DNA of 64,000 nucleotides from Bacteroidales bacterium. Lineage in GTDB: Bacteria; Bacteroidota; Bacteroidia; Bacteroidales; UBA932. Location of the stretch: contig JAZUGR010000031.1 in assembly GCA_045641345.1 (NCBI GenBank), positions 1,789-65,788 on the forward strand, read 5' to 3'. How positions within the stretch are numbered: the first letter of the stretch is position 1; each line of letters starts with the position of its first letter. Shown piece by piece: positions 4,513 to 53,413 of the stretch. The notes under the pieces were generated by a model. The model saw only the letters and a program-made list of their open reading frames with translations. It was not told the origin of the DNA and ran no database searches. The position numbers and the translations under genes are program-made.

Positions 4513-4514
4513 TT

Positions 4515-8424: not shown

Positions 8425-8444
8425 TTCCTTCGTATAATAACCTA

Positions 8445-8452
8445 CAAATTTA
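8445..8452 (-). promoter_or_regulatory. Candidate -7 box for the S41/lipoprotein/C10 operon
   Basis: The minus strand reads TAAATTTG, 20 nt upstream of ATG 8424. Confidence 0.4.
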
Positions 8453-8472
8453 CATATTTCTGCGAATTGTCC

Positions 8473-8480
8473 TATCTTTG
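8473..8480 (+). promoter_or_regulatory. Candidate -7 box for rdgB-recO
   Basis: TATCTTTG, 35 nt upstream of ATG 8516. Confidence 0.4.
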
Positions 8481-8515
8481 GGCAAAATCCGGACCATTCA
8501 CGACAGGTTCATACC

Positions 8516-9816: not shown

Positions 9817-9830
9817 AAAGCCGCAAAGCT

Positions 9831-17015: not shown

Positions 17016-17054
17016 ATCCGTTGTCATTAATTATTGCAAGTCTGTCTTCGCAGG

Positions 17055-17062
17055 CAAAACTA
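17055..17062 (-). promoter_or_regulatory. Candidate -7 box for the carboxylesterase gene
   Basis: The minus strand reads TAGTTTTG, 39 nt upstream of ATG 17015. Confidence 0.4.
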
Positions 17063-17158
17063 CTTCACCTTCCGCAGATTCGCAACATCCGAAAATCCGA
17101 TAAAGTTTTGCCGTTGGCCGGCGAAGTGCCATCTGCGAGTGCAAAAACACCCCGAAAC

Positions 17159-18946: not shown

Positions 18947-19018
18947 TTTTGTGGAGCATCCCTTAAGGGTGCAAATGTACAAAAATTAGCAGCTTTCCGG
19001 AATTCCGGCAAATATTCT

Positions 19019-19026
19019 TATTTTTG
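19019..19026 (+). promoter_or_regulatory. Candidate -7 box for rnr
   Basis: TATTTTTG, 23 nt upstream of ATG 19050. Confidence 0.4.
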
Positions 19027-19049
19027 CATATCAAGGCAAAAGATTGGAT

Positions 19050-32788: not shown

Positions 32789-33331
32789 ATGGAAGACAGC
32801 GAGATACTTGCACTCTTCAGGGAGGGGGAACGCAACCGGGCATTCAATGTCATCGTGCGTACATATTCCGAACGCCTCTACTGGCATCTGCGCTCGATAG
32901 TGCAGATTCACGAGGATGCCGACGACCTGCTGCAGAACACGTGGGTCAGGGTTTGGAATGCCCTCGACACGTTCCGCGGGGATTCCGGACTTTATACCTG
33001 GCTCTACAGGATCGCCACCAACGAGGCAATATCCTTTCTCAGGAAGCAGAAAATCACGACGGCACTGCGACTTTCCGACCCCTCGTCAGTCATCGCGGCC
33101 AAGCTGGCGGCTGATGAAGAGTTCAACGGAGACGATCTGCAGGTGGCTCTTCAGAAAGCAATTGCAAAGCTTCCTCCCAAACAGAAAGCGGTCTTTTCAA
33201 TGAGATATTTCGGAGACCTCAAATACGAAGAAATCTCCGAAATACTCGACGTTTCCGTGAACTCTCTGAAAACCTCCTACCATTTCGCCAGCGAAAAGGT
33301 GAAGGAATACATCAAAAAATATATGGATTGA
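32789..33331 (+). CDS. ECF-type RNA polymerase sigma-70 factor
   Basis: 180 aa. Region 2 (LLQNTWVRVWNALDTFRGDSGLYTWLYRIATNEAISFLR) and region 4 (VFSMRYFGDLKYEEISEILDVSVNSLKTSY). Confidence 0.9.
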   Translation: MEDSEILALFREGERNRAFNVIVRTYSERLYWHLRSIVQIHEDADDLLQNTWVRVWNALDTFRGDSGLYTWLYRIATNEAISFLRKQKITTALRLSDPSSVIAAKLAADEEFNGDDLQVALQKAIAKLPPKQKAVFSMRYFGDLKYEEISEILDVSVNSLKTSYHFASEKVKEYIKKYMD

Positions 33332-33369
33332 TTTTTAACTTTCAATAAATACTGTTGTCTAATAAGGCG

Positions 33370-33759
33370 ATGAACGAAAAGAAGGACATACTTGAGCAAC
33401 TCAGGAATTCGCAAAGCGGGTTCTCCGTGCCGGAAGGATATTTCGACACTATTGAAGACAGGGTGCGGGAGAAAATTTCCAACCCCCGGGCAGCGCATCC
33501 CGTATGGGCTGTGGCCAAACCGGCCCTCCTGCTCTCGTGTATGTTCGTCCTTATCCTTGCAATAGGATACGGGACGATGACCATAACGGGGACCTCCTCG
33601 TCCGGGGAGACCGGTAAATTGGCCGAAGACGGCGCCGAAGTGGTCATGGAGCAGGATTTCAGCCATCTGGAAGATGACGAAATTATCGATTATCTTGCCG
33701 AGAACCTTTCCTTTTCAGACATCGAAACGTTTATCGCCGAAGAACAAACCAACCTATAA
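33370..33759 (+). CDS. Putative single-pass anti-sigma factor
   Basis: The track start at 33355 is TTG; the first ATG is 33370 (MNEKKDILEQL). One TM segment, PALLLSCMFVLILAIGYG. The call rests on position directly after the ECF sigma gene. Confidence 0.5.
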   Translation: MNEKKDILEQLRNSQSGFSVPEGYFDTIEDRVREKISNPRAAHPVWAVAKPALLLSCMFVLILAIGYGTMTITGTSSSGETGKLAEDGAEVVMEQDFSHLEDDEIIDYLAENLSFSDIETFIAEEQTNL

Positions 33760-33771
33760 ACACACAGTATC

Positions 33772-34296
33772 ATGAAAAGAATTCTTACTCTCGCAATCTG
33801 TTTCCTGCTCATTTCCGCAGGATGTTTTGCACAGGAAAAAGCAGCTGGGAAAAAGCACAACGGTGAACGCGCAATGGCCGAAAAAATAGGCTTCATCACC
33901 CAGAAACTCCAGCTTACCCCCGAAGAGGCCCAGGCCTTCTGGCCGGTTTACAACCAGTATGCCGCCGCTGCCAAGGAAGCCGGCAAGGCAACGCGCCAGG
34001 CCCGCAAGGCCCTCAGACAGCAGGAAGGTGAGCCGGAAATAACCGAAAAGGAAATGGTAAAGAGGATTGACGCCTATCTCGACGCCGTCAAGGCCGAAAG
34101 TTCCGTACTCGAAAAGTACAACAAGCAGTTCCTCAAGGTGCTTCCCGCCGAAAAGGTCGGAAAGCTTTACATCGCCGAAGTTCAGTATTCCAAGAAGATG
34201 CTCGGCAATCTGGCCAAGCGCGGCAGCCACAAGAACACGGGAATGAAAGGCGAAGGCGCGAAACACTGCCAGAAACCCTGCCCCGATTGCAAATAA
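33772..34296 (+). CDS. Periplasmic Spy/CpxP-like (LTxxQ-type) protein
   Basis: 174 aa with a signal peptide. Helical K/A/E-rich sequence containing LQLTPEEAQAFWPVYNQY. It is the third member of the common Bacteroidetes sigma / anti-sigma / periplasmic-protein trio. Confidence 0.45.
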   Translation: MKRILTLAICFLLISAGCFAQEKAAGKKHNGERAMAEKIGFITQKLQLTPEEAQAFWPVYNQYAAAAKEAGKATRQARKALRQQEGEPEITEKEMVKRIDAYLDAVKAESSVLEKYNKQFLKVLPAEKVGKLYIAEVQYSKKMLGNLAKRGSHKNTGMKGEGAKHCQKPCPDCK

Positions 34297-34365: not shown

Positions 34366-36639
34366 TCACTTTTCCCAACCACCGGTTGTGTAGTCAAGTT
34401 CCTGAGTGTCCGAGCTGGCCGCTCCATCGGTTCCGTCAGGATTGATGAGGCTGTAGCAGATGGTATAGGGGATGCCGTTGAGCACCGCGGTCTTGCCGGA
34501 ATACTTGAAATATTCTCCATCAGGACTGTATGTGGCCTTTTTGGCGGTGACCGTTGTGGCGCACATCACGCTGACATACCACACGCCCGGCTCAAGTTTT
34601 CTGGTGCGGAAATTCTTGTTGCTCCCGGAATTGCAGAGCACATATTCCGAATCGCTGATCCAGGCCAGAGCGCCCTTTCTCATAGCGAGGTACAGATCCA
34701 CACCCGGAACGCTGCAGGTAAGATTCAGCTTGACGCCGTTGTCTGTATCGGGGACTTCTATCTTGAAATGATGGTACTGGCGGTCGCCTATCGCGGTGTA
34801 TGCGGGGTCGGCGTCACTTGTTTTCCTATTCATTACACGAGCCTCGCCGGCGACAAGTTCACCCTTGACCTCGACATCGCCCGGATAATCCGAAGCATAG
34901 CGCAGGAACGATGCCATCAGGTCGCGGCGTTCACCGCTGGTCACGCCTTCGGGGTGGGAGCCGCAATCCACGATTCTACCGGTAGCGGCATCTTTCTTGT
35001 AGCTCCAGACGCAGGTCTTGTTGTGCATCGCCGAAGTGTCGCATTTGTATTTGTGATCCTCCGGATGGTCCTTGCCCTGATCCTCCTTGGGGAAATGGTA
35101 TACCGCCAGGACTTCGGTCCCTTCGGGAGCGCGGCAGGCACCCTCGTCCAGCATATACGGACCGCCGTTGTGACGGACACCGTTTACCATCATATCCCCT
35201 CCGAAATCATAATATTTCAGCAGCGGGCTACCCTCGACCAACCTTACCCTGTGTTCCACATCCTCAAGCGTACTGCCCTTTTCAACACCGTTTTCATCCA
35301 GCCATTTGTCCTTTACATAGGCGGTATAGCCCGGCCATATGTGGAGGAAATTCACGTTCGTGGCAGGAGTGGTCGAAGTGGAGGAAGCCCTGGCGATGCA
35401 GGTCAGGAATGCACCCGCACAGGTGCCTACATAGGTGCCTCCATGGGCTACGAAATCGTTGTAGCGGGAACGGCCCGTCGCTTCGAGTGAAGCTCCGTGA
35501 TTGGTTGACTTGCCACCGTTCATATACACGCAGCGGAAGCGTGGCTCCCCGTCGGGATAGAGCAAAATGCCGTTCTCGTCGGTTTCCGTACCCTGTATCA
35601 GCCCTCTCTGGACAATCGTATCGGTTGCATTGAGTTTGCCGGGTTCCGACCCGCTGTGGGCATTGGAGGCGAAATACTCCCACTGCCATCCGATATAATC
35701 CGCCGCAGGCAGCGTTTTGCGGGAAGTGAGGTGGATTCCACCATCCATAAAGAGATCCTTGTAATATCCTCTGGCAATGACATTGGCTGATTCGGAATTT
35801 TCCGTAACCGTGATTTCGGGCATCTCCAGCACAGAGGAGCGTACCATAGTGTTGTCTGAAACCGTTTGCAGGAAAGAGTATGCCGCACCGTTTTTGTCGT
35901 ACACGGTAATTGAAAATCCGTGGCCGAATACGCCGGCAGGGACGGCTACATAGAAACATTGTGCCTTGGAAGTAAGGGTTACGGGGCTTTCAAGATTGAG
36001 GACAATGGTGTTTCCGCCATCTGTAATCTCGACTTGAGGGTTGGTCATATCGAGGCCGACAAAGCAGTTGCCCCACATCCGGCAGCCCATCAGATCGTGC
36101 ACCGCAAGTTTCGATATTGTGGCCGTGCCCTTCAGGGCCAGCTTCAGCACACCGCCCAGATTGCGGAAATACAGAGTGCCCGACGCCGAGTTCATGGATG
36201 CCACGGACGGGAATGCGCCGCAAACCATATTGCCCAAGCCACCTTTCTGCTCGGCAGGGGTCGGGAAGAAAATCCTGTCACCGGCAAGGGTTATGTTTTC
36301 GTCGTACGGGTAAACGGCATAATATGGAGCCGTACCTTTCGCCGTACCGGTAAAGGTGGCCGCCGAACTGCCTGCACCGGAGGTGAGGGTGAACTTGGCC
36401 ACCTCACCATCGCTGCTCACCAGGGCAAACGAGTCCCCCGAGCTCCACACCACCGACTTGCCGTCACCGCCAATCTGGGTCCTGCCGATGGACGGCGTTT
36501 CGATCACGGCCTCTATGGCATCCTTGCCATATATTACAGCGCCTTCCGTATCCGTGGCGCTCCCTTCGTTGACCTTTGCGCAGGAAACGGAAAAAATGCA
36601 ACCTGCGACAAACGAATAAAACAATATTGCCTTTTTCAT
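34366..36639 (-). CDS. Exported class-I glutamine-amidotransferase-like (Cys-His-Glu) hydrolase with N-terminal Ig-like surface module and C-terminal PPC domain (long paralog)
   Basis: Track ORF trimmed to ATG 36639 (MKKAILFYSFVAGCIFSVSCAK, lipobox). The N-terminal ~300 aa is beta-rich (VWSSGDSFALV...YYAVYPYD). The core has the nucleophile elbow GGTYVGTCAGAF and CGSHPEGVTSGER (HPE of the GATase1 triad). The C-terminal GDRQYHHFKIEV...GVDLYLAMRKG...GVWYVSVMC is PPC-like. The CDS is certain; the function is tentative. Confidence 0.6.
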   Translation of the reverse strand: MKKAILFYSFVAGCIFSVSCAKVNEGSATDTEGAVIYGKDAIEAVIETPSIGRTQIGGDGKSVVWSSGDSFALVSSDGEVAKFTLTSGAGSSAATFTGTAKGTAPYYAVYPYDENITLAGDRIFFPTPAEQKGGLGNMVCGAFPSVASMNSASGTLYFRNLGGVLKLALKGTATISKLAVHDLMGCRMWGNCFVGLDMTNPQVEITDGGNTIVLNLESPVTLTSKAQCFYVAVPAGVFGHGFSITVYDKNGAAYSFLQTVSDNTMVRSSVLEMPEITVTENSESANVIARGYYKDLFMDGGIHLTSRKTLPAADYIGWQWEYFASNAHSGSEPGKLNATDTIVQRGLIQGTETDENGILLYPDGEPRFRCVYMNGGKSTNHGASLEATGRSRYNDFVAHGGTYVGTCAGAFLTCIARASSTSTTPATNVNFLHIWPGYTAYVKDKWLDENGVEKGSTLEDVEHRVRLVEGSPLLKYYDFGGDMMVNGVRHNGGPYMLDEGACRAPEGTEVLAVYHFPKEDQGKDHPEDHKYKCDTSAMHNKTCVWSYKKDAATGRIVDCGSHPEGVTSGERRDLMASFLRYASDYPGDVEVKGELVAGEARVMNRKTSDADPAYTAIGDRQYHHFKIEVPDTDNGVKLNLTCSVPGVDLYLAMRKGALAWISDSEYVLCNSGSNKNFRTRKLEPGVWYVSVMCATTVTAKKATYSPDGEYFKYSGKTAVLNGIPYTICYSLINPDGTDGAASSDTQELDYTTGGWEK

Positions 36640-36685
36640 AAATCTTAAAACATCCCGGCCCTGACCTGCCGGCTCGGGTAACCGG

Positions 36686-36693
36686 CAAAGATA
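36686..36693 (-). promoter_or_regulatory. Candidate -7 box for gene 34366..36639
   Basis: The minus strand reads TATCTTTG, 46 nt upstream of ATG 36639. Confidence 0.4.
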
Positions 36694-36705
36694 AAAATTA
36701 TTTCC

Positions 36706-36713
36706 TAATTTTG
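36706..36713 (+). promoter_or_regulatory. Candidate -7 box for genes 36737..39627
   Basis: TAATTTTG, 23 nt upstream of ATG 36737 and 12 nt from the divergent box. Confidence 0.4.
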
Positions 36714-36736
36714 CCGTATCGGTATATTCCTGCAAG

Positions 36737-38260
36737 ATGAAACGGATCCTTTTCTTCGCCTTTATTCTATTCTTCTGCCAGACGGCCTATTGCACCGAAG
36801 AAACAAGTTTCGCGTCTGAAATCGACAAGTGTGCCGCCAAAGTCCGCAATGACTGGAATATCCCGGGATTCAGCCTCACGGTAATGCACGAAGGGAAGAC
36901 AGTCCTCTCCAAGGGATATGGCGTAAAGACCAAGGGGGGATCCGCTCCGGTTGACGGGGCCACCGTGTATCAGATCGGATCTGTATCCAAGTCCTTCACC
37001 GCCGCCCTGATGGCCATGATGGTGGACGAAGGCAAAGTGAGGTGGGACGACCGCGTCAAGGACATTCTGCCGGATTTCGAGCTTTACGACAAGGCCGTGG
37101 AGAACGACCTCCGCGTATCCGATATAATGACACACCGGATGGGATTCCGCAGCCAGGCTCTCACATATGCTCCCAATGTCGGATACGACACCGACGACGT
37201 TTACCGGATGCTGTCACTCCTCAAACCGGAATATCCTTTCCGCGACGGGATGCACTACAACAATATGACGTTCATAATCGCTCAGAAAATCATAGAAAAG
37301 GTGAGCGGCCTTTCGTGGGAGGATAACCTCAACTGCCGCATTTTCGCACCTCTGGGTATGGGGTCCGCCTCCTGTGGAGGACCCGGATTCGAATCGGCGG
37401 AGAATGTGGCATCCCCCCACAACATGTATTCGGTAAAGGACTCCATCCGATGCTCGCCAATCAGGGGCGAGGGGCGCGCCCTCCACTGGCTTTCGGTGGT
37501 GGGACCCGCCGGTGGCATCAACTGCAGCTCGAAAGACCTTGCCAGATGGGCGCAGTTCCATCTTGATGACGGAGTGGCGGCAGGTCGCCGCCTGATATCC
37601 TCCAACCAGATGGGATACCTCCACAGCGGAGTGGCAATTTCGGCCATAACAGACGAAAAAATAACAATCTACGGCCATTGCTGGTACATCGAACAGACCG
37701 AAAGCTGTCGCATATACTATCACACCGGCACCACCTGGGGGCAGGCGGCGCTGTGTGTCTGGGTCCCCTCGCTGAACCTGAGCTTTGCAATGCTTTTTGG
37801 CTCGGACGTGCCGTCCAATCCGCGCTTCGCCCTGATGAGGAGCATCGTCGACATTTACAGCGGGGCGCCGAAGAGGGACTACAGCAAGGAAGAAAAAAAC
37901 AAATGGCTGCACCGCAGGGGCGGCTCCTCCGGAAAATCAGGATTCACGTACCAGTACGGTTCCGCGGTACATCCCGCGAAGGACATTTGCGGAAAATACA
38001 CCAAGGAAGCCCCTTTCGGGGATGCTGAAATCTCCACAAAGAACGGCAGACTCTACATAACGATAGGGAGATATGGCTGGCGACATCCCCTGTCGCACCT
38101 GAAGGGCAACACATATTTCTTCTATTCCGACGGACACCGCTTCCCGGTCCGTTTCAAATTCTCTGCCGGAGGCGGTGCCGAAGGATTTGAACTCGACTGG
38201 GGCTACGGAGAGAAATTCGGACCATGGAAAAGGAAAAATTTGTTACCTTCGGCTCCGTAA
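36737..38260 (+). CDS. Exported serine hydrolase, beta-lactamase fold (peptidase S12 / class C-related) with extra C-terminal domain
   Basis: 507 aa with a signal peptide. SxxK = SVSKSF, YxN = YNN (GMHYNNMTF), HTG = YYHTGTTWG. The C-terminal ~110 aa is a beta domain (GRLYITIGRYGW...FELDWGYGEKFGPWKR). Confidence 0.8.
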   Translation: MKRILFFAFILFFCQTAYCTEETSFASEIDKCAAKVRNDWNIPGFSLTVMHEGKTVLSKGYGVKTKGGSAPVDGATVYQIGSVSKSFTAALMAMMVDEGKVRWDDRVKDILPDFELYDKAVENDLRVSDIMTHRMGFRSQALTYAPNVGYDTDDVYRMLSLLKPEYPFRDGMHYNNMTFIIAQKIIEKVSGLSWEDNLNCRIFAPLGMGSASCGGPGFESAENVASPHNMYSVKDSIRCSPIRGEGRALHWLSVVGPAGGINCSSKDLARWAQFHLDDGVAAGRRLISSNQMGYLHSGVAISAITDEKITIYGHCWYIEQTESCRIYYHTGTTWGQAALCVWVPSLNLSFAMLFGSDVPSNPRFALMRSIVDIYSGAPKRDYSKEEKNKWLHRRGGSSGKSGFTYQYGSAVHPAKDICGKYTKEAPFGDAEISTKNGRLYITIGRYGWRHPLSHLKGNTYFFYSDGHRFPVRFKFSAGGGAEGFELDWGYGEKFGPWKRKNLLPSAP

Positions 38261-38283
38261 ATGATTTGTAAAAACTTTCGATA

Positions 38284-39627
38284 ATGAAAAAACCGATCGC
38301 TCTCGCTTTTGCCGCTGTTGTGGCCCTCCTTATGCAGGATTCCGCTTCGGCGCAGTATTACAAGGACCTTTTCATGGACGGTGGCATCAATATCACCTCC
38401 CGCAAGGACCTTCCCGCCGCCCGCTATCTGGGCATCTCGTGGGAAGCCTATTATTCGGCCGACACCAAGAACCTTTCAATGAAGGACACCGTCGAACAGA
38501 CCGAAAAAATGGTAACTTCCCCCGTGGATTACAACGGCTGCCTGCTCTACCCCGACGGAGCGCCCCGTTTCCGCGTACTTTATGAAAATGGAGGAAAGGC
38601 CGGCAAGCACGGACAGTCACTTACCGAAACCGGTCGGAAGCATATCCGCGACTTCGTCGCTGCCGGCGGCAGCTACATAGGAACCTGCGCAGGCGCATTC
38701 GTGTCGTCGATTGCCGACACCAAGTACAGTTCCAAGCTCGGAAAGTGCATATCGGCCGACAACGACAGGGTCCGTGAGGAATATTTCGCCATCTATCCTG
38801 CCAAGACCCTCTCGACCTGCAAGCTCACAAAGGACCATTGGAAGAGAACCGTTACTACCGGAATGAAAGTGGAGCCCGGATGCCCCCTGCTGAAATATTA
38901 CGATTTCGGCGGTGATATGTATATCGACAGCGTACGCCACAACGGAGGATGCTTCATCACCACCGATCCGATGCATTTCGCCCCGGGCACGGAAATCCTC
39001 CTGCGTTACGACTTCGACAAGGACGACGTCCGCAAGAAAGAGGGGATCTTCCCCATCTCGGGCCATATCAGCACCTGGGCCTATAAGGCAGACGAAAAGA
39101 GCGGACGCATAGTGGACTGCGGCTCGCATCCCGAAGGTGTGACCTCGGGTGAGCGGCTGCAGTTGTTCGCATCCTTCATCCTGTATGCTATGGACGGCAA
39201 CGGCACCCCTTCGGTCAAAGGTGAGCTCGAAAAAGGCCTTGTGCGCGAGATGGACAAGAAAACCGAAGACGCCGACCCCGCATTCACAAGAATCGGCGAC
39301 AGGCAGTATCACCACTTCATCGTCAATATCCCCGAAGGTGCAAAGGATATCACGGTGACCCTCAAGAGCGACAGCAAGGACGTTGACCTCAACCTTATGA
39401 TGAAAAAAGGAGACTTTGCATTCAGGAACGTATCGACTTATAACGACGTGACTCTCGGCGGCAGCAAGAAACTCAAATTCGACACCATCGAAGCCGGGAC
39501 CTGGTACATAGCTGTGGAATGCGCCACAACCGTCACCGAAGTTCCCACCGATTACGGCGTGAAGTACATCGGCAACCTCGAGGTGCTCAACGGAATCCCC
39601 TATTCCATCAAGGTGGACTGGAAATAG
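38284..39627 (+). CDS. Exported class-I glutamine-amidotransferase-like (Cys-His-Glu) hydrolase with C-terminal PPC domain (short paralog)
   Basis: 447 aa. SPI signal ending ASAQ. YYKDLFMDGGINITSRK, GGSYIGTCAGAF and GRIVDCGSHPEGVTSGER (18 consecutive residues identical to the long paralog). PPC-like GDRQYHHFIVNI...DVDLNLMMKKG...GTWYIAVECA. It starts 23 nt after the preceding gene. Confidence 0.6.
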   Translation: MKKPIALAFAAVVALLMQDSASAQYYKDLFMDGGINITSRKDLPAARYLGISWEAYYSADTKNLSMKDTVEQTEKMVTSPVDYNGCLLYPDGAPRFRVLYENGGKAGKHGQSLTETGRKHIRDFVAAGGSYIGTCAGAFVSSIADTKYSSKLGKCISADNDRVREEYFAIYPAKTLSTCKLTKDHWKRTVTTGMKVEPGCPLLKYYDFGGDMYIDSVRHNGGCFITTDPMHFAPGTEILLRYDFDKDDVRKKEGIFPISGHISTWAYKADEKSGRIVDCGSHPEGVTSGERLQLFASFILYAMDGNGTPSVKGELEKGLVREMDKKTEDADPAFTRIGDRQYHHFIVNIPEGAKDITVTLKSDSKDVDLNLMMKKGDFAFRNVSTYNDVTLGGSKKLKFDTIEAGTWYIAVECATTVTEVPTDYGVKYIGNLEVLNGIPYSIKVDWK

Positions 39628-39646
39628 GCAACCTCCCGGAAAACGG

Positions 39647-39684
39647 ACAAGCGGAGAATCCTCCTGGACTCTCCGCTTGTTTTG
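39647..39684. terminator. Bidirectional rho-independent terminator
   Basis: Perfect 11-bp stem acaagcggaga / tctccgcttgt with a 12-nt loop, followed by tttt. It lies between convergent stops at 39627 and 39703. Confidence 0.65.
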
Positions 39685-39702
39685 CACCTGTCTGGTGAAT
39701 AT

Positions 39703-40911
39703 TTATTTTTCTTTGAGATACTGGTCGTAGAGGAGATTTACAGTCAGATAGTAAATCTTGTAAACCTCGTTTATCTTGTCGAGCTTGGTGCTCGAAGCGA
39801 TACAAACGAACCCCCAGTCCTCGTCAGGGCAGAAGAACATACAGCTCTTGAGACCCTGTGCGCTGCCCGTATGCCCCTTGAGCGTCTTGCCTTCGATGAA
39901 ACGGGTCTCGGTGCGGGTTGTAAGGCAGTATAGCGTTCCTTCATCGGCCGGAGTGACAGGGGTCAGAAGCTTCTTGACGCCTTTTTCGGAGAGAATTCTG
40001 GTGCCGTTGGGAGCCACACCGCCATCACGCAGGGTCATCATCCATTTTGCAAGATTGGGGGCGGAGATCTTCATACCGCCGGTAGGAGACCAGCCGCAGC
40101 CGTCTTCTCCAATCACATAAGTTCCAGCCGCAACTTTCTTTTCGCCGCGGGTCTTGTGCTCGTATGCAGTCTTGGATTTGATGAGCGAATTGCTCTTCTT
40201 GTCGTAATTGTAAAGAGACACGAACTTGCTGTTGTCGAGGGTGTCGACGTTATATCCGGCCTCTTTCTCGGAAAGACCCATCGGACGAAGGATGTGGTTG
40301 AGCACATAATTATCGAAACGCTCACCTGAAACCTTCTCGATTATCACGCCGATTGTGTTGATGGCGCGGTTGCAATATTTGTAGCCCTGCCCCGGAGGAT
40401 ACGGCAGATATGCCTTCTCCTTGATGGTTTTGATATCGGTCTTGCTCTCGTCGATGTATGTGAGGTCGCGGTACATCGCTGCGCCGCCGCCATCCCTCAT
40501 ACTTGAGGTGTGCGAGAGGAGCATCTTTACCGTTATGGGAATATCCGGATAGCGCGGGTTGCGGACATTCATTCCGAGAATGTCGTTGACATCGTCGTCA
40601 AGCGAGATTTTTCCGGCCTCGACAAGCTGCATTATGGAAACACCCGAGAACGACTTGGAAATCGAGGCGATACGGAAGATGTCGTTGATATCCAACGGTA
40701 TCTCCTTCTCAGCATCCTTGTAGCCGAAAGCGTTCTGATAGATGACGTTGTCACCCTTGACCATAACTACGGCAAGACCGTTGGTCATACATTCCTCCAT
40801 ATATCCCTTGATTTTATCTTCAATCTGGGATTGTGAGAGCTTCTGGGCATCGGCATCGGCTCCGCAAAACAGGAGTGCTGCAAATGCGATTAAAAAGAGA
40901 TGTTTTTTCAT
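39703..40911 (-). CDS. Exported serine hydrolase, beta-lactamase fold (peptidase S12-like)
   Basis: Start trimmed to ATG 40911 (MKKHLFLIAFAALLFCGADADAQ). SxxK = SISKSF, YxN = YCN (YKYCNRAIN), HTG = LKGHTGSAQG. Confidence 0.8.
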   Translation of the reverse strand: MKKHLFLIAFAALLFCGADADAQKLSQSQIEDKIKGYMEECMTNGLAVVMVKGDNVIYQNAFGYKDAEKEIPLDINDIFRIASISKSFSGVSIMQLVEAGKISLDDDVNDILGMNVRNPRYPDIPITVKMLLSHTSSMRDGGGAAMYRDLTYIDESKTDIKTIKEKAYLPYPPGQGYKYCNRAINTIGVIIEKVSGERFDNYVLNHILRPMGLSEKEAGYNVDTLDNSKFVSLYNYDKKSNSLIKSKTAYEHKTRGEKKVAAGTYVIGEDGCGWSPTGGMKISAPNLAKWMMTLRDGGVAPNGTRILSEKGVKKLLTPVTPADEGTLYCLTTRTETRFIEGKTLKGHTGSAQGLKSCMFFCPDEDWGFVCIASSTKLDKINEVYKIYYLTVNLLYDQYLKEK

Positions 40912-40924
40912 ATTCGGTAATAAT

Positions 40925-42505
40925 TTAGTTCCGTTTGTCATTTCTTCTCAGCACGTGACCGGCAAGGGCGCCGGTGTAATTGTCGTCTTCAACCGACACG
41001 ACTCCGTTTACAATCACATCCTTGAATCCGGTGCACATCAGACCCGGCTCGGAATAGGTTGCGTTTGCACGGAGTTCTTCCGGCTTGAATACCAGAATGT
41101 CGGCAAACGCCCCCTTGCGGAGCACGCCACGATCTGTCAGACGGTATGTTTCGGCCACAAGGCTTGTGCTCTTGCGTATCATTTCGGCAAGTGATATGAC
41201 CTGCTTTTCAAGAACGTACTTCTGAATCTTTTCGGCGTATGTTCCGGCTGCGCGGGGATGAGAGCCGAACGTACCGTCGGTACAGGTCATCACCCACGGT
41301 TTTTTCATATAATTTACAAGATCCTCCTCGTTGGCCACGAACGTATTGACATACGGCTTGTCATCCGCACAGAGTTTCACCACGGCATCCACGGGGTTCA
41401 AATTCAATTTTTCGGCAGCCTCGGCAAGTGTCATTCCCGAGCAGTCGCCTGCATCCTTGTTGATGAAGATGGTTTCAGCACCGCCTCTCTCATATATCAT
41501 ATCAGGAATTTCGGCCTTGATTCTGGCGAGCGTTGCGGAATCCTTGAACCTTTCGCGCAGCCCCTGCACACCTCCGTCGCGGGCCCACGACGGGGTCAGG
41601 GCCGACGACATCCTCAGCCCGGAGGCAAGATACGGGTACTGGTCGGCGGTGACCTTGAGCCCCTCGGCCTGATATTTCTCTATTATGTTGATAATGCTGT
41701 CGGAGCGGTGCCACACACTCTTGCCAAGACACTTGATATGTGAGATGTTGACCTGCACACCGGCCTGGCGGCCTATTTCAAGAGCTTCCACTATCGAATT
41801 GTAGAGGCCTATGCCATCCTTGTTCTCATTGCGGACGTGGGTTGTATAGATACCTCCTTCCCCTGCCATGGAACGGCAGAGTTCCACCACTTCGCGGCCG
41901 TCGGAAAAACATCCCGGCACATAATAGAGACCCGACGACAACCCGAGGCTTCCCTCCTGCATCTCCTTTGCAAGAAGTGCCTTCATCGCAGCGATTTCCT
42001 CATCGGTTGCAAATCGGTTTTCATCTCCCATAACCTGATGGCGGATGGTGTTATGCCCGGTGAAGCTGGCCACGTTGGGCCCTATGCCCTGCTGCCGGAG
42101 GGTCGCAAAAAACTCTCCGATAGGATAGTGGCTCCCGCCGCACTGCCCTGGAATCATTGACGTAACCCCCATCCTCAAATATGATTCACACGCTTTTTCC
42201 TCAAGCAGTACGTTTTCCTGATGGTTATGAGGGTCTATGAACCCGGGACATACCACATATCCCGTGGCATCGATCGTCTTGTGTGCCCTGCATTTCGATG
42301 CGATATCGGCCCGCGCCTCTCCCATATACACAATCCTCTCGCCTACAACGGCAATATCCGCCACCTGCGGAGAATCGTTGACCCCGTCGTATACGGTTCC
42401 ACCCACGATAAGGATATCGGCCTGCGACGGAATCCCGTTGCAGGAATGGGTGACGGCAGATGCCAAGGCCAGAACCGTCAGAAATAAAATTGTCTTTTTC
42501 ATCAT
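40925..42505 (-). CDS. D-aminoacylase family amidohydrolase (N-acyl-D-amino-acid deacylase-like), exported
   Basis: 526 aa with signal peptide MMKKTILFLTVLALASAVTHSC. N-terminal ADILIVGGTVYDG beta-sandwich start, metal motif PGFIDPHNH, and the ISHIKC and DQYPY blocks typical of D-aminoacylases. Confidence 0.75.
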   Translation of the reverse strand: MMKKTILFLTVLALASAVTHSCNGIPSQADILIVGGTVYDGVNDSPQVADIAVVGERIVYMGEARADIASKCRAHKTIDATGYVVCPGFIDPHNHQENVLLEEKACESYLRMGVTSMIPGQCGGSHYPIGEFFATLRQQGIGPNVASFTGHNTIRHQVMGDENRFATDEEIAAMKALLAKEMQEGSLGLSSGLYYVPGCFSDGREVVELCRSMAGEGGIYTTHVRNENKDGIGLYNSIVEALEIGRQAGVQVNISHIKCLGKSVWHRSDSIINIIEKYQAEGLKVTADQYPYLASGLRMSSALTPSWARDGGVQGLRERFKDSATLARIKAEIPDMIYERGGAETIFINKDAGDCSGMTLAEAAEKLNLNPVDAVVKLCADDKPYVNTFVANEEDLVNYMKKPWVMTCTDGTFGSHPRAAGTYAEKIQKYVLEKQVISLAEMIRKSTSLVAETYRLTDRGVLRKGAFADILVFKPEELRANATYSEPGLMCTGFKDVIVNGVVSVEDDNYTGALAGHVLRRNDKRN

Positions 42506-44052
42506 TGAACTCTTGTTATCTTTTTGAGAATTTCTGTCATATTAACCTTCCCAGCAACGACGTCACGCAACCCGGCAATCGGAATCCTTTCCTGCTCCAT
42601 CGTATCTCTGTAACGGATTGTTACGCAGTTGTCGTTCAAGGTGTCGTGGTCGACGGTTATGCAGAACGGGGTGCCGATCGCATCCTGCCGGCGGTACCGC
42701 TTGCCTATGGAATCCTTTTCATCGTACTGGCAGTTGAATTCGAACCTCAGGCTGTCGAGGATTTCGCGCGCCTTTTCGGGCAGACCGTCCTTCTTGACAA
42801 GAGGAAGGATTGCCAGTTTGACAGGTGCGATGCAGGCGGGCAGGTGCAGTACGGCGCGGGTTTCTCCACCATCGAGCGCCTCCTCCTCGTAGCACGACGA
42901 CAATATCGAAAGGAACATACGGTCAAGACCGATGGAAGTCTCGATGACATAGGGGGTGTAGTTTTCGTTGGTTTCCGGGTCGAAATATTGGATTTTGCGG
43001 CCGCTGAACTTCTGATGCTGCCCCAGGTCGAAATCGGTACGCGAGTGTATTCCCTCCAGTTCCTTGAATCCGAACGGGAACTCGAACTCTATGTCGGTGG
43101 CTGCATTCGCATAGTGCGCAAGTTTCTCGTGGTCGTGGAATCTGTATTTTTCATCGCCCAGGCCGAGGGCCTTGTGCCACGAGAGGCGCGTCTGCTTCCA
43201 CGCATTGAACCATTTCATCTCATCGCCGGGACGCACGAAGAACTGCATCTCCATCTGCTCGAACTCGCGCATACGGAAGATGAACTGGCGCGCCACTATC
43301 TCATTGCGAAAGGCCTTGCCGATCTGCGCGATGCCGAACGGAATCTTCATACGGCCGGTCTTCTGCACGTTCAGGAAATTGACGAAGATACCCTGCGCCG
43401 TTTCGGGCCTCAGGTATATCGTTCCGACGCCACCGTCGACATTGCCCAACTGAGTGCTGAACATAAGGTTGAACTGGCGCACCTCCGTCCAGTTCTTAGT
43501 GCCGGAAATCGGACAAGCTATCTCGCAGTCGATGATTATCTTCCGGAGTTCCTCGAGGTCGTTCCTGCCCAGGGCGTCAGTCATTCTGGCATGGACTTCG
43601 TCATATTTCGCCCTGCTGCGGAGAACGTTGGGGTTGGTGGCAAGGAACTGCTCCTCGTTGAAAGCGTCGCCGAATCTCTTGCGGCCCTTTTCAACCTCTT
43701 TCAGGATTTTATCTTCGATTTTTGCCAGGTAGTCCTCGATCAGCACGTCGGCACGATAGCGTTTCTTGGAATCCTTGTTGTCGATAAGGGGATCGTTGAA
43801 CGCCCCTACGTGCCCCGAAGCCTCCCAGATGCGCGGATGCATGAAGATTGCAGAGTCAATCCCCACTATGTTGTCGTGGAGATGGACCATCGACTCCCAC
43901 CAGTATTTCTTGATGTTGTTCTTCATTTCAACGCCCATCTGGCCATAGTCATACACGGCGCTCAAGCCGTCGTATATTTCGCTCGAAGGGAATATGAATC
44001 CATACTCCTTGGCATGGGCGACCAGATTCTTGAATGTTTCTTCCTGTGTCAT
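42502..44052 (-). CDS. glyQS: Glycine--tRNA ligase (homodimeric type)
   Basis: 516 aa. Class II motifs including IGKAFRNEIVARQFIFRMREFEQME and TSIGLDR. The stop overlaps the start of the downstream D-aminoacylase gene (ATGA). Confidence 0.95.
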   Translation of the reverse strand: MTQEETFKNLVAHAKEYGFIFPSSEIYDGLSAVYDYGQMGVEMKNNIKKYWWESMVHLHDNIVGIDSAIFMHPRIWEASGHVGAFNDPLIDNKDSKKRYRADVLIEDYLAKIEDKILKEVEKGRKRFGDAFNEEQFLATNPNVLRSRAKYDEVHARMTDALGRNDLEELRKIIIDCEIACPISGTKNWTEVRQFNLMFSTQLGNVDGGVGTIYLRPETAQGIFVNFLNVQKTGRMKIPFGIAQIGKAFRNEIVARQFIFRMREFEQMEMQFFVRPGDEMKWFNAWKQTRLSWHKALGLGDEKYRFHDHEKLAHYANAATDIEFEFPFGFKELEGIHSRTDFDLGQHQKFSGRKIQYFDPETNENYTPYVIETSIGLDRMFLSILSSCYEEEALDGGETRAVLHLPACIAPVKLAILPLVKKDGLPEKAREILDSLRFEFNCQYDEKDSIGKRYRRQDAIGTPFCITVDHDTLNDNCVTIRYRDTMEQERIPIAGLRDVVAGKVNMTEILKKITRVQ

Positions 44053-52166: not shown

Positions 52167-53297
52167 CTATTCCAATATAGGTTTCTTCATAAGCTCTACC
52201 ACCTCAGGGATCGGTAGAGCTTTTACTTTATAGCCCCTGTATCCCTCCATATCTTCGGCCGCGAACAGTGAGTTCCACAAAGCCTCTTCGGTTGCTTCCA
52301 AAGCTGCTTCAAACAAAGGTGACATCGACTTGTTGTGCAAGAGTGTGGGGAAGTAATATGGAGTGTCCTCATCGATGAGATTGTCGTGATAGACGGATAC
52401 TGCAACACAGTAATCACCGCTGCCGTTGGTGGCAAACGAGCCGGTTTTGGCAAGACCCATGAAGACGCGCTTTGCCAGACGGTTCAAACCTCTGGCATCA
52501 AGAGGAGCGTCAGTAAGAAGAACCATCATACAGGAACCGTCAGGTTGTTCATCCTTTTCCTTGAGAACCTTGTTCTTGTAAGTATAATGGTTCATTAGTT
52601 TGCCTACGGGAGCTCCGTTGATTTCAAGGATTCCGCTGTAATTTGTCTGAACGAGAACGCCTACTGTATATCCGCCGAGAGACTCCGGAAGCACCCTGGA
52701 TGACGTTCCTATCCCACCCTTGAAATCAAAGCAAAGTGTCCCAGTGCCTGCACCTACACAACCCTCTTCGACAGGACCTCCCTTTGCTGAATATATTGCT
52801 TTCAAAACATCCTTCTGTGTAACCCTGCGTGCTGCTATATCGTTGAGTTGACTGTCGTTTGTCTCCCCTACAAAAGAATTTACGGAACGTATATTGTTTC
52901 TCCCGTTCTGTTCGAGTGTATATGTAATGATTCCCTCTATTGCCTGTGCAACTGAAAAGGTATTGGTAAGTACAATAGGTGTTTCGATGTTTCCAAGTTC
53001 TTCGACCTGAGTATAACCTGCCATTTTTCCGTACCCGTTTCCGACAAAGACTGCGGCAGGACATTTTTTCTTGTATAAATTACCATCATGCGGTATTATC
53101 GCAGTAACTCCTGTTCTTATATCCGTTCCTTCCTTTATTGTAACGTGACCTACCTTTACTCCGCTTACATCCGTTATAGCGTTATAACGGCCTGTCTCAA
53201 ATATGCCCGGGCAAATTCCGTAATCACGGAGCCTTCCTTTTGAAAAACACAATGTGACAGAGAGAAGAATCAAACTGAAGGATAATAATTTTTTCAT
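52167..53297 (-). CDS. P1 family peptidase (S58, DmpA/BapA-like aminopeptidase), exported
   Basis: Trimmed to ATG 53297 (MKKLLSFSLILLSVTLCFS). VGAGTGTLCFDFKGGIGTSS and MMVLLTDAPLDARGLNRLAKR blocks as in the DmpA/S58 family. Confidence 0.7.
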   Translation of the reverse strand: MKKLLSFSLILLSVTLCFSKGRLRDYGICPGIFETGRYNAITDVSGVKVGHVTIKEGTDIRTGVTAIIPHDGNLYKKKCPAAVFVGNGYGKMAGYTQVEELGNIETPIVLTNTFSVAQAIEGIITYTLEQNGRNNIRSVNSFVGETNDSQLNDIAARRVTQKDVLKAIYSAKGGPVEEGCVGAGTGTLCFDFKGGIGTSSRVLPESLGGYTVGVLVQTNYSGILEINGAPVGKLMNHYTYKNKVLKEKDEQPDGSCMMVLLTDAPLDARGLNRLAKRVFMGLAKTGSFATNGSGDYCVAVSVYHDNLIDEDTPYYFPTLLHNKSMSPLFEAALEATEEALWNSLFAAEDMEGYRGYKVKALPIPEVVELMKKPILE

Positions 53298-53322
53298 GGA
53301 AATATAACTGTTGAGACAAATA

Positions 53323-53330
53323 CAAAGATA
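53323..53330 (-). promoter_or_regulatory. Candidate -7 box for the S58 peptidase gene
   Basis: The minus strand reads TATCTTTG, 25 nt upstream of ATG 53297. Confidence 0.4.
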
Positions 53331-53335
53331 GTTTC

Positions 53336-53343
53336 TAATTTTG
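53336..53343 (+). promoter_or_regulatory. Candidate -7 box for hflX
   Basis: TAATTTTG, 70 nt upstream of ATG 53414. Confidence 0.35.
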
Positions 53344-53413
53344 TAAAAAATAGTCACGGATTATTTTTTAGTATAAAAATTGAAGTCAATCATTTCAAAA
53401 CAGATCTAAGCAT

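Follow-up and report, generated by a model that had tools for sequence, protein, structure and literature searches.

What joint task, if any, do five adjacent genes for exported hydrolases serve in a Bacteroidales genome? A preliminary description, made from the sequence, had reported such a block in the window (the whole stretch of DNA analysed, 64,000 nucleotides). We recovered the five ORFs at the positions and on the strands it gave, and the family motifs it quoted are present in the translations:

Gene A, 34366..36639, minus strand: 757 aa, probable lipoprotein in three parts.
Gene B, 36737..38260, plus strand: 507 aa, exported S12 serine hydrolase with SVSK/YNN/HTG.
Gene C, 38284..39627, plus strand: 447 aa, exported, class-I GATase-like, with a PPC-like C-terminal domain.
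Gene D, 39703..40911, minus strand: 402 aa, exported S12 serine hydrolase with SISK/YCN/HTG.
Gene E, 40925..42505, minus strand: 526 aa, exported D-aminoacylase-family metallo-amidohydrolase, possibly a lipoprotein, with GFIDPHNH.
glyS, 42502..44052, minus strand: ORF for glycyl-tRNA synthetase (GlyRS), upstream of E and overlapping it; outside the system.

All five proteins begin with a signal-peptide-like N-terminus, in which an M-K-K/R start precedes a hydrophobic core (MKKAILF... in gene A, whose start lies at 36639), and maximum 10-residue Kyte-Doolittle scores are 2.1-3.2 for A-E versus <=1.45 for the cytoplasmic neighbours. Cleavage-like sites were seen between ASA and Q in C and between ADA and Q in D, and possible lipobox cysteines in A (VAGC, SVSC) and E (THSC); the choice between SPI and SPII was made by eye. 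Neither the block nor the rest of the 64-kb window holds SusC/SusD genes, and the window contains no muramidase, MurNAc-L-Ala amidase or transporter genes. Other peptidases encoded in the window belong to families U32, C10, S41 and S58.

The block is organized as three transcription units, with two intervening elements:

A/B divergent intergenic region, 36686..36713, no strand assigned: two TAnnTTTG matches.
Bidirectional intrinsic terminator hairpin, 39647..39684, no strand assigned: between convergent C and D, with a U-run on both strands.

The start codon of E overlaps the glyS stop (ATGA) and D starts 13 nt past the E stop; glyS transcription appears to read through into E-D via this overlap, so that glyS, the housekeeping anchor of the locus, probably supplies E-D transcription. 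Genes B and C, the latter starting 23 nt past the former, are probably co-transcribed. TAnnTTTG is the Bacteroidetes -7 promoter motif; of the two matches, TAATTTTG (36706-36713, plus strand) precedes B by 24 nt and TATCTTTG (reverse complement of 36686-36693) precedes A by ~47 nt, and from motif and position these may be the promoters of B and A. The hairpin between C and D folds as RNA at -33.1 kcal/mol (z -6.1) on the plus strand and -33.5 kcal/mol (z -4.7) on the minus strand, and 0 of 200 shuffles were equally stable.

We then asked what the enzymes are, and the family assignments made earlier held up for all five in Pfam and PDB matches. Genes A and C are indeed paralogues, the C-terminal 450 aa of A being 46% identical to C. 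In the product of gene A, a ~290-aa N-terminal domain is followed by a Cys-His-Glu domain resembling class-I GATases and by a beta-sandwich like that of PPC; AF2 modelling (pLDDT 77) and Foldseek give the N-terminal domain a Bacteroides type-V-pilin or ‘cell adhesion protein’-like fold (best PDB matches BF1858 3t2l, 4k4k and 3ufi; TM ~0.45, E 3e-7). In the AF2 model of C (pLDDT 89, pTM 0.88), Foldseek likens the N-terminal domain to HisH (1kxj) and GatD (9sq9), with TM to target ~0.6, and the C-terminal domain to the collagenase PPC/CBD (5sv5, 1nqj). Both proteins exceed the gathering cut-off of the Pfam profile BPL_N (A 27.1 and C 35.3 bits; cut-off 24.2) in matches that are local, around the nucleophile elbow only, and both score under the PPC cut-off of 25.9 (17.9 and 25.2 bits). 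The Pfam profile of gamma-glutamyl hydrolase, Peptidase_C26, does not match the A/C family even at E<=10. Of 117 relatives, 116 retain the triad, which is Cys135-His282-Glu284 in C; its loss from homologues had been named beforehand as grounds for rejecting the preliminary description. Homologues of C are numerous (1479 90%-identity clusters; 268 50%-identity clusters at E<=1e-30), and A-type proteins are present in loci L001-5, L007, L008, L010 and L079. Laminin_G_3 ConA-like lectin domains occur in many multidomain members of the family, and a dockerin in one. The A/C family has no characterized enzyme, so that fold is the only guide to a possible substrate.

Genes B and D match the Pfam Beta-lactamase family PF00144 (180 and 159 bits). 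An AmpC-type identity, which would have counted against the preliminary description, was ruled out by scores far under the cut-off of the NCBIfam class C beta-lactamase model (79 and 54 bits; cut-off 415) and by HTG replacing KTG. The best NCBIfam match of D is AmpH, a DD-carboxypeptidase/endopeptidase (71 bits; cut-off 266). Top PDB matches are esterase IS11 (7spn, 6.5e-27) for B, with Pab87 (2qmi) also among the best, and Pab87 (2e-23), alkaline D-peptidase (4y7p) and R61 DD-peptidase (1cef) for D; among the closest solved relatives of the pair, the characterized enzymes Pab87, alkaline D-peptidase and R61 use D-amino-acid peptides as substrates, a hint at specificity. ClbP is also among the PDB matches of B/D. 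Gene B has a DUF3471/lipocalin-like C-terminal extension, with DUF3471 at 23 bits, below the Pfam cut-off. Against a D-peptide reading, the S12 family includes esterases, among them the best PDB match of B.

Gene E matches Amidohydro_3 and Amidohydro_1 in Pfam, and in the PDB D-aminoacylase (1rjp, 1.7e-62), N-acyl-D-Glu deacylase (3gip, 2.3e-53) and the carbohydrate de-N-acetylase OngB (9kb1, 7.8e-52), a sugar-acid de-N-acetylase that also belongs to the D-aminoacylase family (PMC12017989). Every metal and catalytic position (HxH, Cys, His, His, Asp) aligns with these PDB relatives, and the translation contains the YPY motif described in PMC12149444. Against the NCBIfam model PRK09061, E scores 186 bits (cut-off 340).

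Does the set recur? In a second organism (L079; GlyRS 84% identical), the same five genes stand as glyS-E-D/C-B/A, at 78% (E), 84% (D), 79% (C), 68% (B) and 51-59% (A) identity. Expanded versions read glyS-E-D-D'/SusD-SusC/SusC-SusD-C-C'/B/A-A'-A''/C69 on the single contig of L078 and L005, and glyS-E-C45/D-C''/SusC-SusD/C in L082; L028 has glyS/D-C-B, without E and A. In L028, L078, L079 and L082, glyS is 84-90% identical and in the same position. Orthologues of E directly follow glyS in L078, L079 and L082, and D orthologues (67-84% identical) directly follow E in L078 and L079. In L081 the E orthologue adjoins an NlpC/P60 gene with an M23 peptidase near, and in L083 E stands alone. In L001-5, L007-10, L028 and L079, no more than ~1.5 kb separates the B orthologue (50-68% identical) from C-family genes; this spacing to the closest C orthologue was found in nine of the ten best genome loci, the tenth contig ending at the gene. 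Across relatives, E, A and B are each absent from some, C45-like, C69 or M14 genes are added in other versions, and tandem arrays reach five paralogues. The block is therefore co-conserved as a set of recurring parts and not as a fixed five-gene unit. The earlier statement that it is not a PUL and lacks SusC/SusD is correct locally, but the orthologous loci of the expanded relatives carry one or two SusC/SusD pairs.

Gene fusions tie the parts together further. Four proteins of other Bacteroidota (P0151-3 and P0180, ~876 aa) are E-like in their N-terminal half and D-like in their C-terminal half, which is the order of the genes, with halves 44% (E) and 42% (D, measured against P0153) identical to the window's proteins. 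Such a Rosetta-stone arrangement supports a functional link of E and D. These fusion genes follow SusC-SusD-SusC-SusD in L084, where a BT_3987-like_N lipoprotein gene precedes the fusion, and an M14 peptidase in L085; a single fusion (P0329) joins M14 to an A/C-family protein.

Across 76 genome loci of the A/C family (486 genome matches in all), 163 genes immediately neighbour a run of A/C-family genes; 35 of these are peptidase/amidase genes (S12, C45-like, C69, M14, FGase-like and D-aminoacylase), as are 13 of the 694 other genes (OR 14, p 5e-17). The corresponding counts for SusC/SusD genes are 18 of 163 and 33 of 694 (OR 2.5, p 0.005). Related MAGs contribute non-independent loci, which inflates these p-values. 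Recurrent neighbours are SusC/SusD, ECF-sigma/FecR and other peptidases, and Na+-dependent SNF-type transporter genes flank the family in L018 and L019. Some versions have GH97 or GH3 genes at their flanks (GH97 in 3 loci only); neighbour clustering returned no CAZyme recurring beside the family, nor any L-peptidase of the types classic for Bacteroidales (S9 DPPs, M13, S8). In 44 of the 76 loci the A/C-family gene has no peptidase or Sus gene directly beside it, and in only 1 of the 76 does E adjoin an A/C-family gene.

Given the recurrence, the fusions and the neighbour enrichment, the reading that fits best makes the block a compact member, lacking SusC/SusD, of a modular family of amidohydrolase loci associated with Sus genes. 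In this view, loci of the family, found in uncultured rumen and gut Bacteroidales, pair exported amidohydrolases with Sus-like outer-membrane import, usually with SusC/SusD genes nearby. It is likely that the block is a functionally linked, nutrient-type module; action on D-/gamma-linked peptides is a more tentative proposal. The full explanation, a SusC/SusD-less locus scavenging D-amino-acid or gamma-linked amide nutrients, we place at a probability of roughly 0.5. The locus would digest small amide-linked nutrients poorly handled by ordinary L-peptidases, most likely D-amino-acid peptides and/or gamma-glutamyl-type (side-chain) amides such as those of bacterial cell-wall debris. We infer substrate class, order of steps and cellular location as follows. 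A, tethered by its pilin-like domain, would probably sit at the surface and C would be soluble; class-I GATase chemistry is gamma-glutamyl-thioester chemistry, and the triad of A and C may act on an amide of the gamma-glutamyl type, cutting it by way of a thioester intermediate. B and D would trim D-residues off peptide ends, and E would hydrolyse the remaining N-acyl-D-amino acids or L-Xaa-D-Xaa dipeptides. The muropeptide or D-/gamma-bond substrate put forward earlier is likewise a conjecture, for a block lacking a muramidase and a MurNAc-L-Ala amidase, and the dispensability of E (absent from L028, alone in L083) counts against the nutrient and D-peptide reading, as do the failure of Peptidase_C26 to match, the membership of OngB in the D-aminoacylase family and the 44 loci where the A/C-family gene adjoins neither peptidase nor Sus genes.

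Part of the evidence would also suit general peptide nutrition, in which common L-peptides are cut, or Gln/Asn peptides deamidated for ammonia, with no D- or gamma-link involved. Broad-specificity C69 dipeptidases, M14 carboxypeptidases and C45-like genes with SusC/SusD are frequent neighbours, SNF-type transporters flank two loci, U32, C10, S41 and S58 peptidases lie elsewhere in the window, and a GATase-type triad could act merely as a glutaminase. We consider this unlikely, because the characterized enzymes closest to B/D and E among solved structures show D-stereospecificity, the E-D fusion joins two D-specific families, and S9, M13 and S8 enzymes are not recurrent neighbours. Less probable still is maintenance of the cell's own envelope, with E, D and perhaps B remodelling or recycling periplasmic peptidoglycan beside unrelated A and C. 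The tight glyS-E-D packing in the window, L078, L079 and L082, the AmpH match of D and the NlpC/P60 and M23 neighbours in L081 agree with it, and because E-D seem co-transcribed with glyS, a constitutive housekeeping role suits better than an induced nutrient system. AmpH, however, scores far under its cut-off, E-D fusions within SusC/SusD loci and beside M14 are typical of nutrient acquisition, L028 lacks E, and losses, expansions and five-paralogue arrays among close relatives are unlike core envelope functions.

A decorated glycan or glycopeptide, de-N-acylated or de-esterified in place of free peptides, is an improbable target: peptidase families are the dominant recurrent partners and CAZymes are not recurrent, even though E is as close to OngB as to N-acyl-D-Glu deacylase, lectin domains and a dockerin occur in the A/C family, GH97/GH3 genes and the BT_3987-like_N lipoprotein accompany some loci, and S12 contains esterases such as IS11. 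Export of all five proteins, and the resistance and prodrug peptidases within S12 (ClbP among the matches), would fit inactivation of competitors' D-amino-acid antimicrobial peptides or beta-lactams, as by D-stereospecific resistance peptidases. Such a defensive role seems very improbable, given the low class C beta-lactamase scores and HTG where KTG is expected, a SusC/SusD importer and dipeptidase association that suits catabolism, and no linked efflux or sensor genes. Chance juxtaposition of unrelated exported hydrolase genes draws on the three transcription units of mixed orientation, the differing composition among relatives and the direct adjacency of a peptidase or Sus gene in only 32 of 76 loci; already disfavoured, it is hardly credible beside the same five genes in L079, expanded versions at the same site in L078 with L005 and in L082, the E-D and M14-A/C fusions and the 14-fold odds ratio.

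The block looks like a trimmed nutrient-scavenging locus, built around a cysteine-enzyme family, A/C, without characterized members. The preliminary description knew of no described locus with this composition, which is only partly right. In the archaeon Pyrococcus, the gene for the S12 D-peptidase Pab87 has a D-aminoacylase and a dipeptide transporter in its neighbourhood, and a role in processing D-peptides that come from bacterial debris was proposed (PMC2651629). The NlpC/P60 gene beside the E orthologue in L081 is a further hint at specificity. By analogy with the archaeal precedent, D-amino-acid or gamma-linked peptides are plausible targets.

All five adjacent ORFs of the preliminary description were recovered at exactly its coordinates and strands, and Pfam agreed with its family calls for each of them:

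34366-36639, minus strand: A, 757-aa ORF, BPL_N (glutamine-amidotransferase-like fold) with a weak PPC match
36737-38260, plus strand: B, 507-aa ORF, Beta-lactamase (PF00144) with a weak DUF3471 tail
38284-39627, plus strand: C, 447-aa ORF, BPL_N with a weak PPC match
39703-40911, minus strand: D, 402-aa ORF, Beta-lactamase (PF00144)
40925-42505, minus strand: E, 526-aa ORF, Amidohydro_3 and Amidohydro_1

On inspection, each N-terminus opens with M-K-K/R and continues into a highly hydrophobic segment, with maximal 10-residue hydropathies of 2.1-3.2 compared with at most 1.45 in the cytoplasmic proteins GlyRS, SufS, RuvA, LepA and transketolase. C and D carry putative cleavage-like sites (A-x-A before Q), and cysteines of A and E are placed as in a lipobox.

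The block is more than one operon. A and B diverge across a 97-bp spacer in which we read one putative TAnnTTTG-type Bacteroidetes -7 box towards each gene; a sigma-70 promoter scan, a type uninformative for Bacteroidetes, returned 6 matches against 8 expected. B and C are 23 nt apart, and a strong bidirectional hairpin terminator (39647-39684; -33 kcal/mol; z -6.1 and -4.7) separates the convergent genes C and D. On the other side, the ATG of E overlaps the stop codon of the glycyl-tRNA synthetase gene glyS (ATGA, window 42502-42505) and D follows E after 13 nt, so E-D probably ride on glyS transcription. The overlap apparently ties translation of the exported amidohydrolase E to that of a housekeeping tRNA synthetase. 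The tight glyS-E junction also occurs in three relatives (for example L078 9998-10001 and L082 9996-10001; L numbers denote loci from genome and metagenome collections). HPPK (folK) precedes glyS in L078 and L082 and is not at that position in the window.

No SusC/SusD was found in the whole 64-kb window, nor a local regulator or transporter for A-E. We considered the following trio (32789-34296), which directly adjoins A, as a locus regulator:

32789-33331: ECF sigma factor
33355-33759: small putative anti-sigma protein, no Pfam match
33772-34296: exported 174-aa protein, no Pfam match

We did not adopt it: the trio runs convergently to A, and neither in L079 nor elsewhere among the relatives is it linked to the block. 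It resembles an envelope-stress trio, and L066 encodes a homologue of the 174-aa protein at ~10 kb from a gene of the A/C family (the family of A and C).

Housekeeping genes (DnaE, Mfd, NrdD and others) and several further peptidases account for the large ORFs of the window; this region of the genome is peptidase-rich overall. Three peptidase genes cluster at 3208-8424, and a second exported-hydrolase-looking run occupies the minus strand at 15273-20705:

3208-4512: U32 peptidase
4515-6362: C10 streptopain-like peptidase with an I69 inhibitor-like prodomain
6793-8424: S41 peptidase with PDZ
15273-17027, minus strand: carboxylesterase (COesterase), 318 bits
17159-18982, minus strand: Amidohydro_3 protein, 607 aa
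18963-20705, minus strand: 580-aa ORF, no Pfam match

A peptidase S58 (DmpA-family) gene lies at 52167-53357 (381 bits); this family is known for D-Ala-amide/ester and beta-peptide hydrolysis. Around it, at 52-56 kb, GC falls from ~0.53 to 0.38-0.42, a drop that may mark an island or a recent acquisition.

Clustering of the A-E genes is real. Scanning a genome collection with the A/C alignment gave 486 confirmed matches, and the best 76 of these loci were all from Bacteroidota MAGs, almost all of them Bacteroidales from rumen, gut or digesters. Conservation of the neighbourhood, which the preliminary description had proposed as a check, was borne out: the five-gene block recurs in L079 and takes expanded forms in L078+L005 and L082.

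Gene order of the block in the window and in relatives (primes mark additional copies).
Window: glyS-E-D, C-B, A; no SusC/SusD
L079: glyS-E-D, C-B, A; identities 78, 84, 79, 68 and 51-59%; GlyRS 84%
L078+L005 (one contig): glyS-E-D-D', SusD-SusC, SusC-SusD-C-C', B, A-A'-A'', C69; same Suf/RuvA/GcvH/GidA synteny
L082: glyS-E-C45-like, D-C'', SusC-SusD, C; locus ends after C
L028: glyS, D-C-B; without E and without A; two GH97 genes and C69 nearby

In rumen MAGs (L001-L004 and L007-L010), B orthologues (51-58% identity) lie within ~1.5 kb of the closest C orthologues, and beside them are A-type proteins, additional S12 genes and pairs of SusC/SusD. The earlier view that the block lacks SusC/SusD and is no canonical PUL therefore stands for the window and fails for relatives, since an adjacent pair is present in L001-5, L010, L078, L082 and L084, a locus with an E-D fusion. 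Four protein clusters of ~876 aa are such fusions, with an E-like N-terminal half (44% identity) and a D-like C-terminal half (42%) in the order of the separate genes, and contain YKYCN and GHTGS motifs. One fusion gene directly follows SusC-SusD-SusC-SusD and a BT_3987-like lipoprotein gene; another directly follows the gene for an 830-aa M14 peptidase. The evidence supports a functional link among the exported amidohydrolases A-E as a modular set, most versions of which are wired to Sus-type import, and we regard the window as a minimal form of this locus family, without local transporter or regulator.

E orthologues are not always linked to the block: L083 holds E alone, and L081 has E beside an NlpC/P60 gene. 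In the latter (10001-12540) the E orthologue (59% identity) is convergent with an NlpC/P60 + SH3 gene, with M20 and M23 peptidase genes less than 9 kb away; NlpC/P60 is a family of gamma-D-Glu-diamino-acid endopeptidases. Scanning metagenomes with E as the single query returned one irrelevant locus, L077. GH97 genes adjoin B-C-D or A genes at L028 4075-8217 (two in tandem) and L001 18293-20341. The GH3 gene beside A in L079 was considered as a NagZ-type link to peptidoglycan and rejected as BglX-like, scoring 217 bits with a glucosidase model against 33 bits with NagZ.

B and D share 24% identity and belong to the S12 family, at 180 and 159 bits for PF00144 (cut-off 27) and with the motifs SVSK/YNN/HTG (B) and SISK/YCN/HTG (D). 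Ordinary AmpC-type enzymes at B and D, the finding that the preliminary description said would refute it, did not emerge: NCBIfam bla_class_C gave 79 bits (B) and 54.5 bits (D) against a cut-off of 415, the third motif is HTG and not KTG, and both also score far below the AmpH cut-off. Their nearest solved relatives are esterase IS11, the D-peptide-specific Pab87, alkaline D-peptidase and the R61 DD-peptidase, with IS11 the top PDB match of B, and Pab87 the best solved relative of D and the second-best of B. By similarity to Pab87, alkaline D-peptidase and R61 only, B and D are candidate D-stereospecific peptidases.

E aligns end to end with D-aminoacylase 1rjp (1.7e-62). Its predicted ligands HxH, Cys, His, His and Asp are all in place (H-N-H, GQCGGS, THVRNE, ISHIKC, CTDG), as is YPY (DQYPY), a motif noted for the N-acyl-D-amino-acid deacylase family (PMC12149444), placing E by its residues in the D-aminoacylase family. 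With 185.7 bits against a cut-off of 340 for NCBIfam PRK09061, E falls outside that subfamily and thus forms a divergent branch.

Members of the A/C family combine a GATase-like domain with a PPC-like one. BPL_N (PF09825) was matched by all 16 aligned members, at 35.3 bits for C and 27.1 for A against a gathering cut-off of 24.2, and the match is local (profile positions 57-96 in C and 53-123 in A, of 283). PPC (PF04151) was matched by 15 of the 16 (best 2.4e-10), C scoring 25.2 bits, just below the 25.9-bit cut-off. A sequence search for solved structures related to C or to the N-terminal domain of A gave nothing meaningful. In Foldseek, the AF2 model of C (pLDDT 89) placed its N-terminal domain on the class-I GATases HisH (1kxj) and GatD (9sq9/6fqb) with probability 1.00 and a TM to target of 0.4-0.6, so that A/C are predicted to have the flavodoxin-like alpha/beta fold and nucleophile elbow of that superfamily. 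The C-terminal domain resembles collagenase PPC/CBD beta-sandwiches (5sv5, 1nqj; TM to target 0.6-0.7).

The putative catalytic residues are strongly conserved. C135, in a GTCAG elbow, and H282-Pro-E284 (S-H-P-E) are invariant in 16/16 aligned sequences. The predicted Cys-His-Glu triad, whose retention in A/C homologues the preliminary description had singled out, is kept in 116 of 117 A/C-family ORFs from 77 loci, the exception being a fragment. A second motif in the PPC-like domain, GDxQYHHF (residues 339-345 of C, window ~39298-39318; D339/H343/H344), is no less conserved than the triad (D 117/117, H 117/117, H 115/117). Ordinary PPC domains are not known to carry it, and its role may lie in metal binding or in the active site itself. 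None of the 16 members matched Peptidase_C26 (MEROPS C26 gamma-glutamyl hydrolase) at E<=10, and some gave weak sub-threshold Pfam matches to S51, GATase_3, SNO and DJ-1/PfpI. A role as a true glutamine amidotransferase donating ammonia to a synthase was rejected: the proteins have signal peptides and no synthase domain, their other domains being only PPC-like or pilin-like.

The pilin-like domain is an extra N-terminal one of ~290 residues in A, whose AF2 model, made from a reduced alignment (pLDDT 77), is similar to type-V-pilin-like 'cell adhesion' lipoproteins of Bacteroides (TM ~0.45), a predicted likeness compatible with surface display. A homologue search with this domain gave 5 matches only. 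The A/C family as a whole comprises at least 268 clusters at 50% identity (E<=1e-30; a 1.84-billion-protein representative library), many of them multidomain. The named matches seen were all from Bacteroidota, nearly all Bacteroidales MAGs, annotated at source only as 'hypothetical', 'BPL-N domain-containing' or 'glutamine amidotransferase-like uncharacterized protein'. Eight long members were scanned (P0329, 1280 aa; P0264, 1001 aa; P0371, P0355, P0309, P0287, P0316 and P0336). Lectin domains of the ConA-like Laminin_G_3 type were present in seven, together with a dockerin in one case, whereas the remaining one was an M14-A/C-PPC-PEGA fusion; most of the set show such a lectin domain or a beta-helix. 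Head-to-tail arrays of five A/C paralogues, with 40-58% identity to C, occupy L012 4667-11266, L067 4814-11341 and L005 8695-19297, and suggest rapid diversification of substrate range.

For a view of the wider family, ORFs were called crudely in 76 loci and clustered all-against-all, and recurrent clusters were annotated. SusC and SusD recurred near A/C genes in 26 loci, C45-like Ntn hydrolases in 10, C69 dipeptidases in 7, and large M14 carboxypeptidases and FGase-like amidohydrolases in 5 each; S12 hydrolases and ECF-sigma/FecR pairs were also recurrent. The order sigma-FecR-SusC-SusD-C45-(FGase)-A/C-M14 repeats in L038, L046, L023 and L027; subtyping of the M14 neighbours gave no PDB or NCBIfam match. 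We compared immediate neighbours of A/C gene runs with other genes in the same +/-10 kb. Peptidase/amidase genes made up 35 of 163 immediate neighbours against 13 of 694 others (OR 14, p 5e-17), and SusC/SusD 18 of 163 against 33 of 694 (OR 2.5, p 0.005), both among phylogenetically related loci. Neither class was directly adjacent in 44 of the 76 loci. One lineage (L025, L051, L054, L055, L064 and L065; ~8000-11500) has an A/C gene directly downstream of butyrate/acetate-kinase-family and phosphotransacylase genes and followed by a ~1500-aa ORF without Pfam match or an MG2 (alpha-2-macroglobulin-like) gene, a setting that differs from the Sus/peptidase one.

Some D-aminoacylase-family enzymes reportedly also hydrolyse L-Xaa-D-Xaa dipeptides (a finding attributed to Cummings et al. 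2009), and E would by this activity finish what B and D start. GATase-triad chemistry typically goes via a gamma-glutamyl-thioester. That chemistry, the D-stereospecificity of enzymes related to B, D and E, and the Pab87 precedent (PMC2651629) point, at somewhat below even odds, to D-amino-acid and/or gamma-linked peptides as the target. Ordinary peptide nutrition, in which the recurrent peptidases would serve common peptides, is the less likely reading; it would leave a useful, if unsurprising, picture of peptidase genes that recur as a module. Neither a muramidase nor a MurNAc-L-Ala amidase was found linked to the block, which counts against whole peptidoglycan as the substrate; maintenance of the cell's own envelope we consider distinctly unlikely. 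E is as similar to the sugar-acid de-N-acetylase OngB as to N-acyl-D-Glu deacylase, and the multidomain A/C forms hint at polymeric or glycoconjugate targets; de-N-acylation of glycoconjugates nevertheless seems improbable, and a role in defence more improbable still.

Bacterial necromass is a large rumen and gut nitrogen pool, rich in D-Ala, D-Glu, diaminopimelate and gamma-linked peptides; to our knowledge, its recycling by the dominant uncultured Bacteroidales is poorly known. We tentatively propose (probability about 0.3) that A/C are a new family of exported cysteine amidases or peptidases, with a GATase fold and an obligatory PPC-like domain, and the signature of unrecognised Sus-linked 'amide/peptide utilisation loci' through which Bacteroidales of the rumen and gut would gain D-amino-acid and gamma-linked peptides of dead bacteria, peptidoglycan stem peptides among them. 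Were necromass recycling the role of this locus family, the Sus paradigm would extend from glycans to unusual peptides, a sizeable orphan family now annotated just 'BPL-N domain-containing' or 'hypothetical' would gain a function, and the A/C family, S12, D-aminoacylase, C45-like, C69, M14 and SusC/SusD genes would form a set to track in metatranscriptomes.

Full-text literature yielded no description of the A/C family or of an A-E-type locus. The claim that no such locus had been described thus holds in part: the A/C family appears undescribed, as does the part it plays as the core that recurs in Sus loci of peptidase type, whereas the Sus-like architecture and the E/D pairing, as near Pab87, are of known kinds. 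A/C share their fold, elbow Cys and H-P-E motif with class I GATase-fold hydrolases (HisH, GatD; C26; PfpI C56; peptidase E and cyanophycinase S51) and differ in being exported, without a synthase partner, and fused to a PPC-like domain with the invariant second motif. E resembles D-aminoacylases over its full length, in ligand positions and in YPY, but has a signal peptide or possible lipobox; characterised enzymes of that family are, as far as is known, cytoplasmic.

Another close known system is the neighbourhood of Pab87, a CubicO S12 enzyme of Pyrococcus abyssi that degrades D-amino-acid peptides and whose gene lies near those of a D-aminoacylase and a dipeptide transporter, proposed by its authors to process environmental D-peptides from bacterial debris (PMC2651629). 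Both loci pair an S12 enzyme with a D-aminoacylase gene, and B, like Pab87, has a putative C-terminal lipocalin-type extension, its weak DUF3471 match. However, Pab87 acts in the archaeal cytoplasm as a self-compartmentalising octamer supplied by an ABC transporter, whereas A-E are all exported; its identity to D and B is low (E-values 2e-23 and 6e-16), and its neighbourhood has no counterpart of the A/C family.

Close in architecture are the Sus-like PULs of Bacteroidota, including the peptide-importing RagAB of Porphyromonas gingivalis. In relatives, one or two pairs of SusC/SusD stand in the locus of the A-E orthologues, with the same arrangement of surface lipoproteins, exported enzymes and TonB-dependent importer as in these PULs, and the wider A/C family occurs with ECF-sigma/FecR regulators. 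For the SusD-like proteins of L078 and L082, uncharacterised SusD structures gave better matches than RagB, to which similarity is weak (5e-6); the comparison carries no information on substrate. The window form departs from these PULs in having no SusC/SusD, regulator or transporter, and the enzymes of the A-E locus are amidohydrolases and peptidases instead of CAZymes.
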